A program made the position numbers and the translations under genes. A stretch of 64,000 bases of DNA from Promethearchaeota archaeon (GTDB lineage: Archaea; Asgardarchaeota; Lokiarchaeia; Sigyniarchaeales; SOKP01), in NCBI GenBank assembly GCA_048939995.1, contig JBHLOY010000001.1:32001-96000 (forward strand), written 5' to 3'. Every line of letters starts with the position of its first letter. Positions within the stretch are counted from its first letter, which is position 1. Below are positions 25,517 to 31,844 of this stretch, in pieces. The notes beneath the pieces were generated by a model. That model worked only from the letters and a program-made list of their open reading frames with translations. It was not told the DNA's origin and did not search any database.

Positions 25517-26029
25517 TTATATTTCCTTAGTGATTTTTTCTAATATTTTTCTATTCGTAGGTTCTGGAATTTCCCCTTCAAAATAGCCCATTGGTAACAA
25601 GGTGAGAACATAATCATTTTTTCCAAGTTCAAGGATTTGTTTCGCCTTATCACGGTCCATTGAGCCAATCCAGCATGTACCTATCCCTAAAGCCCAAGCC
25701 ATAAGCATCATATTCATTGAAACTAACGAAGTGTCTTGAATGTACCATTTTGGACTTTGGTTTACTTTACCGATAATAGCGACTAATATCGGAGCTGTTG
25801 CTGTAAATTTACCATAAGTAGCTGTTTTTGTTAATGCTGCTTTTTTAGATTTACTCTTAACAACTATAAATTCCCACGGTTGCCTATTTGATGCACTTGG
25901 AGCCCATCTACCTGCTTCTAAAATCATTTCTAATTGTTTATCAGGTATTTCCTTTTCTTGGAAATTTCTAATACTACGTCTACTTTTCAAAAATTCTAAA
26001 AAATCTTCTGAGTTAATCATTTTTATCAA
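25517..26029 (-). CDS. Nitroreductase family protein
   Basis: RRSIRNF, APSASNRQPWEF, GIGTCWIG. Confidence 0.92.
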   Translation of the reverse strand: MIKMINSEDFLEFLKSRRSIRNFQEKEIPDKQLEMILEAGRWAPSASNRQPWEFIVVKSKSKKAALTKTATYGKFTATAPILVAIIGKVNQSPKWYIQDTSLVSMNMMLMAWALGIGTCWIGSMDRDKAKQILELGKNDYVLTLLPMGYFEGEIPEPTNRKILEKITKEI

Positions 26030-26172: not shown

Positions 26173-27432
26173 TTAATCTGATTTATTGTTATTAAAATAC
26201 TCTGATTCCAAATTAGGGTATATTTTTTTCTTTCTACCATCCTTTCTAAAATTAATCAGTCCGAGTTCTTTTAGTTTATTTACATGATATTGAATAGTTT
26301 TATGATCCACTTTCAGACGTTTAGTAATTAAGTTATTCCAGAGACCAGGTTCTTTTTCTATCATCTCTAAGACTTCTAACGTTAATTTGCTCTTACTTAG
26401 TTCTACATCTAAATTCGAAATTGGATTTTTTTGATAATATGGAAAATATGTTATAAACTTGCCTATTCTTTTTTTTCCTATGACCTTATACGTTTCTAAT
26501 ATATCTAAATGCCAAACAAGGTTCCCAGCAGCAATTCCCATTTCTCTTAAAAGTTCATTAAAATGAATACCAGGGTTTTTAAGAATTAGATCTATAATAG
26601 CATTTCTATTTTCATTTTCTAAAACTTCCTCTAAACTTAATCGATGTGCACCTTTTTGTATTGGGGTCTGTCTTGTCCTAAGGTAATGAAAGTAGTCCTT
26701 TTTTGATATTAATATCACTATAGAGCCAAAAGCAGCTGCTAAAATTATGATTAGAACTACCCAAAACCATCCATCAAAAATCTCAGTGATTTCAAAAAAT
26801 GTAACAAAGTATTCAGTGTTTGCTTCAATACTCGAAATAGAACTTTCTAAATAACTCTCAGAGCTAGTCTCGTTCAATATTTCATTAGTATCAATTAATT
26901 GCCATGATTCTTGAGTAGGATTATAAAATCCCATTGTATATTGAATACCCGGATTTAATCCATAAAAAGCATTTTTTATACTGCGAAAAACAAGATTTTC
27001 AATAGTTACATTGGATCTAATTCGATAAATACAGTTATATCGATATTGATATTGATTATTTCCTCTTCCTGGGTTTTCAGGTTGTCTAGTTAAGTTAAAT
27101 TCACCTATATCTACTCTAATTGTGACATTCAAGTATATGGGAATGCTATTATTAACAATTATGAAAATTTGACGATTTGAAATTCTATTTTCGTAATTAA
27201 TGTCAATATCTATAATTGTATCTGTAGAAATTCCAAAAATTATGTCATTTGGAAATCTATAGATCACCGTTTCATTTGGATGAATTCTATCTTGATGAGA
27301 AAAAGTGGGAATATCTTCACTTCTTGCTGACACTTGATACATAAAAAAAGTAAATTGAAGGATTACCATAATTGTTATTAATATACTAAATTTCTGTTGA
27401 TTTTTTCTAAAGAAAATGTGAATAAGCCTCAA
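26173..27432 (-). CDS. Membrane-spanning transcription regulator: signal peptide, ectodomain, TM, tandem winged HTH
   Basis: TM WFWVVLIIILAAAFGSIVILI; PGIHFNELLRE..GNLVWHL and PGLW..IQYHVNKL. Confidence 0.85.
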   Translation of the reverse strand: MRLIHIFFRKNQQKFSILITIMVILQFTFFMYQVSARSEDIPTFSHQDRIHPNETVIYRFPNDIIFGISTDTIIDIDINYENRISNRQIFIIVNNSIPIYLNVTIRVDIGEFNLTRQPENPGRGNNQYQYRYNCIYRIRSNVTIENLVFRSIKNAFYGLNPGIQYTMGFYNPTQESWQLIDTNEILNETSSESYLESSISSIEANTEYFVTFFEITEIFDGWFWVVLIIILAAAFGSIVILISKKDYFHYLRTRQTPIQKGAHRLSLEEVLENENRNAIIDLILKNPGIHFNELLREMGIAAGNLVWHLDILETYKVIGKKRIGKFITYFPYYQKNPISNLDVELSKSKLTLEVLEMIEKEPGLWNNLITKRLKVDHKTIQYHVNKLKELGLINFRKDGRKKKIYPNLESEYFNNNKSD

Positions 27433-27501
27433 TTTTTTGTTATTCTATAATTATATAAAAATTTAAAAAAAAATAATATTTTCAATTAGATTTCTAAACG
27501 A

Positions 27502-28188
27502 TTATTTCCTTCTTTTAAGATATACAATTCCTATTACTATGACTGCCGCTACAATAGCTATACTAACGCCAATAATGATATATAAAGTAGTATTCTCTGG
27601 AATTAATATTGTCCAATATGAAAAATGAGTAATAGTGGCTGTTAGATATTCATCCTCAATAGTCGTTGGAACTGAAACCCATTCACTTGTAGCTTCATCG
27701 TAATAAGCCCAAGTCCCTACTCTGTTTTGATTGGTTGCTTGGATCCTTATTCTTGCTTGTGTGAAAGTTCCATTACATTCAATATAACAACAAAAACCTT
27801 CTTGATATTGATACGTATTTCTATTTCTTATCCTGTATGTATTACCCATTTGTAATCCTAGTTGCTCTTCTTCACGTGTACAAGTCATATTCATTTGTAA
27901 ATCATGAACTCCATCAATTTCGACTACAAAATCTTTAACACCAATCTGTAATGCTTCACAGTCCATGTTTAAATCTAAATTAACATTAGCTTGAAATGTT
28001 AATTGAGTCCTATCTCGAAAGCGAAACATCGTTCTAATATTTGCTTCTACCGTTTGTTGTCTTGTATCAACTGAAACGTTAACCGTGTCATCAGGGGGAT
28101 CCATAGCCACAACATTTAATGACGCAAACGTAGAAAAAAGCATCATCAAAAGAAATGTACTTAAAAGAATTTTACTTAATTTTCTCAT
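27502..28188 (-). CDS. Secreted, C-terminally anchored protein; ectodomain paralogous to that of 26173..27432
   Basis: Signal peptide, beta-rich domain ending THFSYW, TM, KRRK stop-transfer. Confidence 0.8.
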   Translation of the reverse strand: MRKLSKILLSTFLLMMLFSTFASLNVVAMDPPDDTVNVSVDTRQQTVEANIRTMFRFRDRTQLTFQANVNLDLNMDCEALQIGVKDFVVEIDGVHDLQMNMTCTREEEQLGLQMGNTYRIRNRNTYQYQEGFCCYIECNGTFTQARIRIQATNQNRVGTWAYYDEATSEWVSVPTTIEDEYLTATITHFSYWTILIPENTTLYIIIGVSIAIVAAVIVIGIVYLKRRK

Positions 28189-28287
28189 TTTTTATCTCTC
28201 AATTATTTTTAAGAAATACAAATCAAATCTATATAAAAAGGATTGAGGAATGATTCTTCCCAATTGAATTAAGTTCATTTTGGAATA

Positions 28288-29259
28288 TTAATCTAATAAT
28301 ATAGTATCAATCTTTTGTACTAAGTCAGAGGATAAAGGCCCTAATTCCAATGTTCTAGCATTTTCTTCAATTTGTGCAATTGTTTTAGCCCCCGGGATCG
28401 GGATTATAGTATCACTAATAGTCATGAGGTAACAAAGTTGGGCTTGAATTATTGTTATTCCTTCTTGATCTATCATATTTTTTAATTCTTGAAGCATTTT
28501 GTTAATTTTTTTGTATCGTTCTTGAGAAAAGTTAACTCCAGCAAGCATATGATCAGCTTCAATCTTAGATTGCTCATTGTATTTACCGGTTAGAATACCA
28601 GAAGCTAAAGGACTTCTTATTAATCCAATTAAATTGAATTTTTCGCAAAGTTGTATCATTTGTTCGTTTTTTAAAGTTAGGTTCATTGCGAATTGTACTG
28701 AATTGCAATTTTTACTTTTTGCGAATATCTGCATTCGATTTGGGTCGTCTGTACTCCATCCATAGCCGCCTATAATTCCCTCTTCTACTAAATCTTCTAA
28801 GATTAATTGTACTTCTTTAGCGTCATTAGGGTCATGCTGACTGGAATGGAATTGGTAAATATCAATATAATCGGTTTGAAGCCGCTCCATACTGGCTTCA
28901 ATAGCACTACGAATATACTCAGGACTAGTATTTTTCTTATCTGGAGTTAAAAGATTACCTTCCTCAAAAATACTTCCGAATTTTGTAGCGACTACAAGAT
29001 CATCTCTATATTCTTTTATGGCTTCTCCGAGAACTTTTTCACTTCTCCCTACTCCATATATATCTGCTGTATCAAAAAGATTAATTCCAAGCTCTATAGC
29101 CCTATGAATAGTTTTGATTGATTCTTGATCATTTACTTTTCCATACGCCAGATAAGTTCCATCAGAGCGCTTGAACGGTCCACCAAGAGCAAAGCATCCC
29201 ATTCCAAGAGCATTTATAGTTTTTTTACTTCCTTTAAGTTTTCTTTTTAACATAATCAC
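28288..29259 (-). CDS. Aldo/keto reductase
   Basis: LGMGC, FDTADIYG, ATKFG, TDYIDIYQFH, PIPGAK. Confidence 0.93.
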   Translation of the reverse strand: MIMLKRKLKGSKKTINALGMGCFALGGPFKRSDGTYLAYGKVNDQESIKTIHRAIELGINLFDTADIYGVGRSEKVLGEAIKEYRDDLVVATKFGSIFEEGNLLTPDKKNTSPEYIRSAIEASMERLQTDYIDIYQFHSSQHDPNDAKEVQLILEDLVEEGIIGGYGWSTDDPNRMQIFAKSKNCNSVQFAMNLTLKNEQMIQLCEKFNLIGLIRSPLASGILTGKYNEQSKIEADHMLAGVNFSQERYKKINKMLQELKNMIDQEGITIIQAQLCYLMTISDTIIPIPGAKTIAQIEENARTLELGPLSSDLVQKIDTILLD

Positions 29260-29588: not shown

Positions 29589-31844
29589 ATGACACTAAAA
29601 GAAATTACTAAGGAAATTTTCACGAGATATGGATTTACTGAGGAGCAAATCCTTATTTATCTAGTATATTTGAGAGTACCAAGAGCTACAGCTTCCGAAG
29701 TTTATCTAACATTAATGGATGGTCATGAAGAACTCACTTATGATAGTGTTTTAGAAATCACAGAATGGTTAGTTGATAAGGGATTTCTTAAAAAAATTAC
29801 TGGAATCGTGGATAGATTTATTCCACTTGAACCTTATTTTGAACTATACATTGGAGAGTCAGAGGGTTTTAGAGATGAAATTGCAAAAATTAAAGATCAT
29901 ATACTAGCTGATCAAGCTAAAAGGTTTGAAAAGCTAGAAGCAATTCAAGATAAAAGTATCAATGAAGTCGAAACTGCTGTTGATAACCAAATCAAAGCTT
30001 TCTTTTCGGATTCTGATACAAAAAATAATGATAAAAGGGAAAAGATTAATAACGCTCGAAATAGATTTACAGATACTTCCAAAACATTGGAAGAAAATCT
30101 CCATAACATTTTAGATACATTAAATATAGATTTAAAGGAAATTTCCGATTCTAAAATCAAGGAAAATGAGGATGGTGTTAATAAAACTAAAGATAATTTA
30201 ACTAATCTTATCTCTGATTTATTAAGTGATTTTTCAAAACGCGTTAATGATCTAGAAAAAGAACTAAAAAATGATTTAGATAATCATGTAGAGAGACACA
30301 AAACTATAGCTAGCGATTTAAAACCAAGAATGGAACAAATACTAGAAAAGTATTTAGAAAGAATGGATAAAATTGTTACCGATTTAAAAGAAAGAATTTC
30401 TCGTCTCTTAAAAGAACATCTTAATCATTTAAAGAACACCACCGATACACTTTCTACTAATTTGAAAGCAACTGTAGATGATAGACACCGAATCTTAACT
30501 GAACAAACAAATGAATTTAAAAGCATGACATTAACACTTATAGACAATCTTTTAGAGCATGCCAATCGATTTACTGATTTTTCAGCAGATATGGCTAAAA
30601 AAGGATTCTTCTGGATGGGTAAAAAGAAAAAGTATAAAGCGCGCCATGAAACCACAATCCAAAATATTTTAATATATACGGAGCCAATGAAAGATGGATT
30701 CATAGACGTAAGTGAGAATTATATCAAAGATACAAGGGATACAAACGAGACTCTAAAAGGTGAAATTACTGATATAATGATTAAGGAAAATGATAATGTA
30801 GTAACTGAAACTACAGATCTTGACCAGAAGGCTCAAGAAACCATTAACGTTCAACTAGAAACCTTAGCCACCGATATGGCTGGTGAAATCAATAATACCC
30901 TTACAAGTGGTGTAAAAGACTGTTCAGACACTACAATAAAGTTGAAGGATGGTTTAGAAAATGCACTCAAACAACACCACCGCCAATATGATGATGCAAT
31001 TAATAAACATAAGGATCTTTCATTAAAGCATTACACAGACTTTGATAGTGAAGTAAAACAAACAAAAGCGAATTGGATTAGAGAAGTGGATGATAAATTC
31101 ATTGCTGGAAAAGCAGATACATCCGAAAAAATTACGAATGAGATTAGTTTATGGGGGGATGAGTCAGCAGATTTAGATAGAAATTTAAGTCAAATGCTCA
31201 CAGATCATAAATCTAAATATGAACAAAACGCTAAGTCTCTTGAAAGTAGCTTATCTAACACGACGCAAGATACAACTCAAAATGTTAAAGATGTAATAGC
31301 TGATTTCACTCTTCAGTTTATGAATTCTATTGATGATGCAACTGAACTAGCAGAAAAGAATGAAGCTAAATTAAAGGATATATATAACGCTTCAGCAGCA
31401 ATCCCAGAGTTAGCTGAAGTAACAACTTGGCCAATAGTAGGAAAGGAAGCTATGATCGCTGCTATTAAGGATGCTGTCTTTAGAACTAAATCCTCGATAA
31501 TTGTTGTCATGCCATCTGTTATTCCTGAAGTTCTACAAGTTGTAAGTGAATATGCTTACCAGAAAAAAGCGGCGAGGTTTCTACTCACTAGTCATTGGGA
31601 TATGAGTCAATACGGTGATATTATAAGAAAAATGATGGCTCTTGGAAATATTCAGTTTAGACAACTTAGTAGCACAGGAGAATTTTTTGCTGTAACCCGT
31701 GATGCCGAGGAGGTAATTATAGGGCCTGCAACTGATAAAGAAAGTGAGATGATATCAATTGTATCAAACCAAATGCAGTATAGTATTTTGTATTCACAGT
31801 TCATCGGTCCTATTTTCCAGGCGAATAGCCGCCCTATTAAATAG
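29589..31844 (+). CDS. TrmB-like wHTH, ~520-aa helical insert, TrmB/PLD-like C-terminal domain
   Basis: GFTEEQILIYLVYL...TASEV...LVDKGF..FIPLEP; C-terminal TWPIVGKEAM..SIIVVMP..RDAEEVIIG. Confidence 0.72.
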   Translation: MTLKEITKEIFTRYGFTEEQILIYLVYLRVPRATASEVYLTLMDGHEELTYDSVLEITEWLVDKGFLKKITGIVDRFIPLEPYFELYIGESEGFRDEIAKIKDHILADQAKRFEKLEAIQDKSINEVETAVDNQIKAFFSDSDTKNNDKREKINNARNRFTDTSKTLEENLHNILDTLNIDLKEISDSKIKENEDGVNKTKDNLTNLISDLLSDFSKRVNDLEKELKNDLDNHVERHKTIASDLKPRMEQILEKYLERMDKIVTDLKERISRLLKEHLNHLKNTTDTLSTNLKATVDDRHRILTEQTNEFKSMTLTLIDNLLEHANRFTDFSADMAKKGFFWMGKKKKYKARHETTIQNILIYTEPMKDGFIDVSENYIKDTRDTNETLKGEITDIMIKENDNVVTETTDLDQKAQETINVQLETLATDMAGEINNTLTSGVKDCSDTTIKLKDGLENALKQHHRQYDDAINKHKDLSLKHYTDFDSEVKQTKANWIREVDDKFIAGKADTSEKITNEISLWGDESADLDRNLSQMLTDHKSKYEQNAKSLESSLSNTTQDTTQNVKDVIADFTLQFMNSIDDATELAEKNEAKLKDIYNASAAIPELAEVTTWPIVGKEAMIAAIKDAVFRTKSSIIVVMPSVIPEVLQVVSEYAYQKKAARFLLTSHWDMSQYGDIIRKMMALGNIQFRQLSSTGEFFAVTRDAEEVIIGPATDKESEMISIVSNQMQYSILYSQFIGPIFQANSRPIK

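Follow-up and report, generated by a model that had tools for sequence, protein, structure and literature searches.

The DNA analysed here (hereafter the window) is a stretch of 64,000 nucleotides (nt) from the 3.75-Mb genome of a Promethearchaeota archaeon (assembly GCA_048939995.1, contig JBHLOY010000001.1, positions 32,001 to 96,000), and all coordinates are window positions. It contains two neighbouring genes on the minus strand, here called A and B, which encode a pair of membrane proteins. Protein A, with 228 amino acids (aa), consists of a signal peptide, a single extracellular domain and a C-terminal transmembrane (TM) helix. Protein B (419 aa), encoded downstream of A, combines a related ectodomain and a TM helix with two winged helix-turn-helix (wHTH) domains. 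The original prediction, made by a model from the DNA letters, had described a two-gene signalling module in which co-oriented genes share a homologous extracellular domain, one product stopping after its TM helix and the other running on into a tandem wHTH region. This layout holds: both open reading frames lie on the minus strand, A ends with a TM helix (residues 202-224) followed by KRRK, and B matches the Pfam families PF24266 and HTH_24 at residues 273-331 and 349-393. Both TM helices are followed by basic residues, and the ectodomains contain N-x-S/T sequons (four in A, six in B); these features fit a topology with the N-terminus outside and the C-terminus inside. Close homologues carry the source names Promethearchaeota or Lokiarchaeota, which agrees with an Asgard origin.

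A is a secreted-type protein whose domain lies directly N-terminal to its anchor. No passenger is found between the signal peptide and the domain, and the protein as a whole has no room for a large adhesion or enzymatic module. AlphaFold2 models of the A and B ectodomains, with a predicted local distance difference test (pLDDT) score of ~90-95, have the same strand order; the variable loop at residues 105-130 of A scores ~68. The A model was compared with 48,161 PDB representatives using VIA-align, with a second look at the best rows. The best matches were the GAIN domains of BAI3 (Z 6.9), CELSR1 (6.8) and CD97 (6.0), the FIIND of CARD8 (6.1) and the ZU5 domain of ankyrin (5.5). On the second look, the BAI3 GAIN domain reached Z 7.2, with a root-mean-square deviation (rmsd) of 3.7 Å over 130 aligned residues, with the rat NLRP1 FIIND (6.1) and ankyrin ZU5 (6.0) among the further matches. 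The best ten rows were all GAIN, FIIND or ZU5 domains, with 114-132 residues aligned over model residues 31-205. Other beta-sandwiches, such as those of glycosidases, align over only ~80-95 residues of the domain. The Z scores of the ten rows (5.4-7.2) lie within the range that the tool yields for models without true relatives, so the fold is called from the consistency of the matches and from the motif described below, not from the score.

Other searches with A were negative within their scope. Foldseek on the A model returned no match at E <= 0.001; Pfam and NCBIfam gave nothing significant, including no match to the GPS, GAIN, ZU5 or FIIND models; and a profile search of PDB sequences found nothing. 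An ESM Atlas search returned the protein's own clusters only, and a shared-word search for longer A relatives (at least 400 aa) found none. Two other assignments were tried and rejected. The DUF5803 family matched weakly in 19 of 53 members (best E 0.0033), its model finds nothing in this genome, and a literature search found no paper that uses this name for this kind of domain. A generic carbohydrate-binding beta-sandwich was also dropped; glycosidase C-terminal domains align over half the domain and lack the motif.

This motif, HFSxWT (H188-F189-S190, then x-W-T), is the best conserved part of A. Across 169 family members the histidine is kept in 167 and the phenylalanine and the serine in all 169, though overall identity falls to 28%. 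In the model, HFS occupies a tight turn between strands 181-186 and 191-197, and the TM helix begins four residues after the second of these, the last strand of the domain. Alignments of the A model to cleaved N-terminal fragments in the PDB end at residue 189, opposite the ends of the NLRP1 ZU5 domain (residue 1212), GPR56 (382), GPR110 (566) and GPR97 (249). NLRP1 is cut between F1212 and S1213 (PMC9700037), and GPR56 at H381-L382/T383, where the P2 His and the P1' Thr are required (PMC13123842). Moreover, an HFS-type motif recurs in most of the best 150 of 227 matches to the A profile (E <= 0.001), always just before a TM or SLH anchor. These matches include large SLH-anchored bacterial adhesins, in which HLTQFAVLA or HFTKYAVFA immediately precedes the anchor; many others are single-TM proteins in which H[FL]SxW[TA] immediately precedes the TM helix.

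The ZU5, GPS and Nup98 domains have been united as one autopeptidase superfamily, including bacterial surface members (Zhang et al. 2012, PMC3482391). Bacterial and archaeal domains that resemble GAIN and carry an HX(S/T) motif have since been termed MAIN, for Microbial Autoproteolysis INducing (Brogan & Rudner, May 2026, 10.64898/2026.05.12.724683). In that work, Edman degradation and S-to-A/T mutants showed that B. subtilis YfkN is cut between F and S of HFS, with products that stay associated; the mean size of a typical MAIN protein is given as 158 kDa. Judging from its modelled fold (MAIN/GAIN_B/ZU5-type) and its motif, A is best described as a minimal MAIN domain protein. We consider it likely that A cuts itself between F189 and S190, as predicted from this assignment; the products would then be expected to stay associated.

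The ectodomain of B is homologous to the A domain. Compared directly by BLASTP, the two proteins align only weakly (19% identity over 158 aa, E 0.011). Local profile-profile comparison of 131 A and 51 B ectodomains with hhalign gives a probability of 98.1% and E 9.8e-14 over 152 columns. The B ectodomain as a query matches A orthologues of other genomes down to E 3e-9, and the A-only profile matches B of the window at E 1.8e-9. Searched against 1.84 billion proteins, the A profile also reaches B-type regulators (P0266, E 6.1e-7; P0197, E 4.5e-20). The five motif pairs from which the shared domain had been deduced are all in register in both the BLASTP and the profile alignments, and the pairwise hidden Markov model comparison that had been proposed as a check finds the ectodomains related, not of unrelated fold.

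The motif, in turn, is confined to A. In B the corresponding turn is longer (SIEANTEY) and, when the two domains are aligned on the Thr that their last strands have in common, places T-E-Y where A has H-F-S. No His is found among the invariant or near-invariant columns of the B ectodomain, and H-x-S/T is absent. Read from the alignments, the B ectodomain is an apparently uncuttable copy of the A domain. The original prediction had missed both the fold and the HFS motif, which sits on A and not on the regulator. It is supported in part, and the placement of the motif alters the likely mechanism.

B itself has the make-up of a membrane-bound transcription regulator, as had been proposed, with winged helices of the ArsR/MarR type: signal, ectodomain, TM helix and curated helix-turn-helix (HTH) matches are all present, and the winged helices are predicted to bind DNA. 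Pfam reports PF24266 (HVO_0163_N) at 59.8 bits against a cut-off of 31 and PF13412 (HTH_24) at 42.3 bits against 21.9, and all Pfam and NCBIfam matches of B are DNA-binding HTH families. Taken alone, each winged helix matches ArsR, SmtB, Phr and MarR repressors (Z 10-12, rmsd 1.1-1.3 Å, up to 30% identity). For winged helix 1 the scores are Z 12.0 to Rv0081 and 11.7 to Pyrococcus Phr (rmsd 1.3 Å); winged helix 2 gives 11.6 to ArsR. Both recognition helices are invariant across the order (G303-L312 in winged helix 1; K378, T379, Y382, H383, K386 and L387 in winged helix 2). In the linker that joins the TM helix to the winged helices, R254 and L265 are invariant and S243, K244, Y247, G261, H263 and R264 nearly so.

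The two genes are conserved as a pair. We searched 151 genomes of the class, grouped into families f1-f7, of which f5-f7 account for seven genomes. A was found in 124 of the 151, and the B ectodomain query likewise matched in 124; both occur in families f1-f4 and neither in the seven genomes of f5-f7. In total, 205 A homologues were found at E <= 0.01. Wherever coordinates were compared (more than 65 genomes of families f1, f2 and f4), A and B share both contig and strand, and A comes first. B was directly downstream in all 49 genome loci fetched through A alone. The B part was also used to fetch 80 metagenome loci: in 61 of them a separate A lies upstream, one is a fusion, and in 18 B starts no more than 300 nt from the contig end. 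These 18 have no room upstream, so that every locus with room (61/61) carries a separate A, besides the fusion. Altogether, order and adjacency are kept in 110/110 informative loci, covering four families of the order; the synteny survey that had been suggested thus finds A and B conserved together. Within this pair the cytoplasmic part of B is conserved far more strongly than the ectodomain of either protein: it shows 65-82% identity within family f1 and ~53% across families, and the B ectodomain 29-50% within f1. As far as sequence searches reach, A orthologues are confined to this order, and weaker MAIN-like proteins occur in four other Asgard families.

Natural fusions join the two proteins on one polypeptide. 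A 2.5-kb contig from a marine sediment metagenome (L075) encodes a protein in which the signal peptide, HFS ectodomain and TM helix of A are joined to the linker and both winged helices of B. Downstream of the fusion gene lies the nitroreductase gene that also follows B in the window, and a sister contig from the same sample carries a separate A that is 84% identical. A distant one-polypeptide form, P0197 (481 aa, GC-rich), has SHFSTFTLLA, then a TM helix and a tandem wHTH; a contig search of the genomes found no relative of it. Both forms are rare. They support a functional coupling of A and B, and they show that a cleavable domain wired directly to such a regulator is a viable design.

Control of the pair may be written into its promoter. 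A conserved box with an inverted repeat precedes the TATA-like box of gene A. Of 51 regions in front of A orthologues, 41 contain it by a regular-expression search, in each case abutting the TATA box on its upstream side, with flanks that have otherwise diverged, and degenerate forms persist in families f2-f4. At the TATA-box position itself, TTTTTATA or TTTAAATA is conserved in orthologous loci. A position weight matrix (PWM) scan of the genome gives this site a score of 36.3, against 18.8 for the runner-up, and the box is unique to this promoter. The operons of a paralogous regulator, B2, described below, carry a similar box, GGnAAAAAnTTATACCTCAAT, at the same position next to the TATA box. 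On this evidence the box is a candidate operator that points to autoregulation by B, with A, and probably B, as its likely targets. The original prediction had offered a decoy, a co-receptor or a target gene as the role of the partner, and the box bears on the last of these. As the repeat abuts the position of the B recognition element (BRE), it would suit an activator or a repressor. Further downstream, most of 46 orthologous A-B spacers (34-138 nt, median 79) contain a run of ~7-13 T. Such a run could act as a partial terminator and so make A more abundant than B. In the window it is followed by a TATA-like TTTTTATATAA, and B may have its own promoter there.

Table 1. Features of the A-B locus and neighbouring genes, in window positions
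Feature	Position	Strand	Description or basis
Gene A, 228 aa	27502-28188	minus	open reading frame; signal peptide, MAIN/GAIN-like domain, C-terminal TM helix and KRRK tail
Signal peptide of A, residues 1-28, ending ...LNVVA	28105-28188	minus	hydrophobic N-terminus; model helix 2-24, low pLDDT; predicted to be cleaved
MAIN/GAIN_B/ZU5-like beta-sandwich of A, residues 29-197	27598-28104	minus	AlphaFold2 model (pLDDT ~90-95) and structural matches
H188-F189-S190 of A, predicted cis-autoproteolysis site	27619-27627	minus	conservation and position in the model; predicted cut between F189 and S190
TM anchor of A, residues 202-224, then KRRK	27517-27585	minus	hydrophobic stretch; model helix 202-227
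A-B spacer, 69 nt	27433-27501		
T9 run in the A-B spacer	27465-27473	minus	putative partial terminator
Gene B, 419 aa	26173-27432	minus	open reading frame, TTG start; signal, HFS-less MAIN-like ectodomain, TM helix and tandem wHTH
N-terminal hydrophobic segment of B, residues 15-36, ending ...YQVSA	27325-27390	minus	conserved in orthologues; model helix 2-33; signal peptide or signal anchor
Ectodomain of B, residues 37-218, without H-x-S/T	26779-27324	minus	paralogous to the A domain by hhalign; pLDDT ~95
TM helix of B, residues 222-242	26707-26769	minus	model; followed by the basic stretch SKKDYFHYLRTR on the cytoplasmic side
Juxtamembrane linker of B, residues 243-265, SKKDYF..KGAHRL	26638-26706	minus	basic, strongly conserved
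Winged helix 1 of B, residues 266-333, HVO_0163_N / ArsR type	26434-26637	minus	PF24266, E 2.8e-16
Winged helix 2 of B, residues 346-408, HTH_24 / MarR-ArsR type	26209-26397	minus	PF13412, E 5.3e-11
Conserved box ATTGGGAAGAATCATTCCTCAATCC, inverted repeat GGGAA-N6-TTCC	28240-28264	minus	candidate operator of the regulator
TATA-like box TTTTTATATA	28230-28239	minus	~41 nt before the ATG of gene A; read from the sequence; putative promoter element
Nitroreductase gene	25517-26029	minus	directly downstream of B
Aldo/keto reductase gene	28288-29259		between gene A and the 751-aa gene
751-aa protein	29589-31844	plus	TrmB-like N-terminus and very long coiled coil

Variants of both genes occur in relatives and elsewhere in this genome. 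One relative has two tandem A genes before B (L052, G105:C1:2677675-2680640). Four archaeal or metagenomic proteins (P0137, P0181, P0195 and P0207) carry two to four MAIN-like repeats, each with an HFS-type motif, before a single TM helix. A second A-like paralogue, found in relatives (L065-L068), has an insertion of 60-170 residues of metallothionein-like CxCxC repeats in one loop of the extracellular domain. This genome retains a start-less fragment of that paralogue, in which RMLS replaces HFS (G000:C31:14702-15001; L002 1453-1827) and which is probably a pseudogene. On the side of the regulator, a 252-aa paralogue of the TM and tandem-wHTH part of B (G000:C13:207170-207769; L004 1387-2145) shows 36% identity and has two N-terminal TM helices and no ectodomain, and soluble tandem-wHTH paralogues are encoded at C11:136980, C21:1637 and C3:35748. 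B2, found in relatives (L069-L074), has 411-421 aa, the same architecture as B and no HFS. It always lies downstream of a ~190-aa, N-terminally anchored protein (SKK.IGG...LIPVFMYGF) that is unrelated to the A/B fold (hhalign probability 0.1%).

The nitroreductase gene occupies the same place in 10 of 20 diverse loci; it may be co-regulated with A and B, or its position may be mere local gene order. In 9 of 20 diverse loci, and also in L076, the gene for the 751-aa TrmB-like protein lies next to A in divergent orientation, and often the two share the intergenic region that bears the box. In the window, an aldo/keto reductase gene is inserted between the two.

Taken together, we lean towards reading A and B as one transmembrane module that controls its own promoter. 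That is, a self-cleaving surface protein would be coupled to a membrane-tethered, autoregulating transcription factor, an interpretation to which we give slightly better than even prospects. A would be exported and held by its C-terminal helix, with the MAIN domain as its sole extracellular part, and would cut itself at HFS by an N-to-O acyl shift. The cut would leave a fragment of ~160 residues bound non-covalently to a stub made of one strand, the TM helix and KRRK. The ectodomains of A and B would act together at the cell surface, where loss, capture or displacement of the A fragment by force, ligand or envelope damage would alter the state of B. Either still tethered to the membrane or once freed by intramembrane proteolysis, in the manner of RsgI/SEAL systems, B would then act on its presumed target, the GGGAA-N6-TTCC box directly upstream of the BRE/TATA elements of the A-B promoter. 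Because A offers the domain alone to pull on, a pure force sensor is disfavoured; binding of A to itself or to B, or capture of a ligand by the variable loop 105-130, may be more relevant.

Several points weigh against this coupled module. The archaeal family is known from sequences and models alone, and the contact between the A and B ectodomains is something we infer. A, unlike typical MAIN proteins, has no adhesion or enzyme module to transmit force. The structural scores are in the range already qualified above, and some GAIN domains with an intact motif are uncleaved, as in BAI2, which was crystallised in that state (8oek). No S2P or rhomboid gene lies near the locus. Regulon searches of the genome with a relaxed core and with regular expressions returned only intragenic sites or poor matches. 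The box may bind another factor, and since its full form occurs once in the genome, no regulon supports its assignment to B. Finally, the fused L075 form comes from a single short metagenome contig. The more far-reaching proposal, that a self-cleaving domain of the GAIN kind is wired to gene expression in Asgard archaea and that dissociation of the A cleavage products is sensed by the motif-less paralogue on B and passed to the transcription factor, is offered tentatively, and we judge it somewhat more doubtful than credible.

Part of the same evidence can be read in other ways. The locus could serve release only: A would be a self-cleaving surface protein that is shed, B an independent sensor-regulator of A, and the shared fold the trace of an old duplication without contact between the products. 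The MAIN preprint does argue for release and not for signalling, the box upstream of A fits A as a target gene of B, and B2 pairs with its unrelated partner, so a homologous partner is not required for such regulators. Yet A has no passenger domain worth releasing, the pair keeps its order and adjacency in every informative locus, and the fusions place the cleavable domain on the regulator itself; we regard a pure release module as unlikely. A different view would take HFS as structural and A as uncleaved, the pair being a co-receptor/receptor heterodimer of non-catalytic beta-sandwiches with stabilisation of the ToxR/ToxS type. Modest structural Z scores, the existence of uncleaved GAIN domains and a B that works without the motif are all compatible with such a heterodimer. 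The near-invariance of H, F and S in an otherwise diverged domain is not, and the same triad stands before the anchor in distant bacterial and archaeal relatives and is the shown cut site in bacterial MAIN domains, which leaves an uncleaved A rather improbable.

Doubt could also be directed at B. On the whole B model, Foldseek lists RPC34, TFIIIC, ESCRT-II and ScpB among the best matches, with winged helices filling the list, and the tandem winged helices might accordingly bind proteins at the membrane, in the manner of ESCRT-II, ScpB or RPC34-type proteins, so that B would not be a transcription factor. The winged helices taken one by one best match ArsR, Phr or MarR repressors, and on these grounds an ESCRT-II-like role was rejected. 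With family matches that are all DNA-binding, recognition helices that do not vary and a conserved palindromic box in front of the operon, we hold a purely protein-binding B to be very improbable.

In animals, GAIN domains drive mechanosensing by adhesion G-protein-coupled receptors (GPCRs), and the Asgard group is the archaeal lineage closest to eukaryotes. If the coupled module described here is real, it would represent a new class of archaeal signal transduction and bear on the origin of cleavage-dependent surface receptors. Should Asgard archaea indeed wire a GAIN-like domain in this way, the module would be a prokaryotic counterpart, possibly a forerunner, of adhesion-GPCR or Notch-style cleavage-dependent signalling, and the fused forms would be a simpler, one-protein version of it. 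The parts are known, namely MAIN/GAIN domains, transmembrane transcription regulators and the autoproteolysis-coupled signalling of RsgI; their combination is new. According to the MAIN preprint, MAIN domains serve release and not transmembrane signalling, and the anchored fragment has no known part in signalling; HTH domains and Asgard archaea go unmentioned there (10.64898/2026.05.12.724683). The locus may be the first case that connects MAIN domains with signalling into the cell. It provides a concrete candidate for such a role in a minimal system of 228 + 419 aa, with a cut site and an operator that are both predicted and with fusions that occur naturally.

Four groups of known systems invite comparison. 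Like MAIN domains such as that of B. subtilis YfkN, A is secreted and has a GAIN_B-like beta-sandwich, an H-hydrophobic-S/T motif in the turn before the last strand and a domain placed directly before a surface anchor. Unlike them, A is a bare domain that carries no adhesion, enzyme or toxin passenger, is held in an archaeal membrane by its TM helix, and is strictly syntenic with, and rarely fused to, a transmembrane transcription factor that carries a motif-less copy. The GAIN domains of adhesion GPCRs and the ZU5/FIIND domains are the best structural matches and have the cleavage triad at the equivalent turn. In A, as with the tethered agonist of adhesion GPCRs, the strand that follows the predicted cut site leads directly into the membrane-spanning part. 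In contrast to these proteins, A and B have no helical GAIN_A, Cys-rich GPS motif, 7TM region or UPA/CARD, and a second polypeptide provides the output, in the form of a winged-helix DNA-binding domain.

The RsgI anti-sigma factors with SEAL domains resemble the pair in that a self-cleaving extracytoplasmic domain next to a single TM helix is coupled to the control of transcription, and dissociation of the cleavage products is the proposed trigger (PMC10556640, PMC10328401). They differ in their SEA-like fold, in their output (anti-sigma/sigma-I, in bacteria) and in carrying the cleaving domain on the regulator itself. This last arrangement is not that of B in the window and is seen only in the rare fused forms L075 and P0197. 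In the ToxR/CadC-type architecture, an N-terminal cytoplasmic OmpR-type wHTH is followed by one TM helix and a C-terminal periplasmic sensor, and ToxS is not known to be a paralogue of the ToxR sensor. The original prediction had likened the locus to ToxR/ToxS and CadC (surveyed in PMC10269533), and the likeness stands as an analogy: in each case the regulator unites a DNA-binding domain with a TM helix, and the gene for a small membrane partner lies beside its own. It does not extend to topology or domain type, as B is reversed, with its sensor N-terminal and outside and its tandem winged helices, of ArsR/MarR and not OmpR type, C-terminal and inside, while its partner A is a paralogue of the sensor domain that carries the self-cleavage motif.

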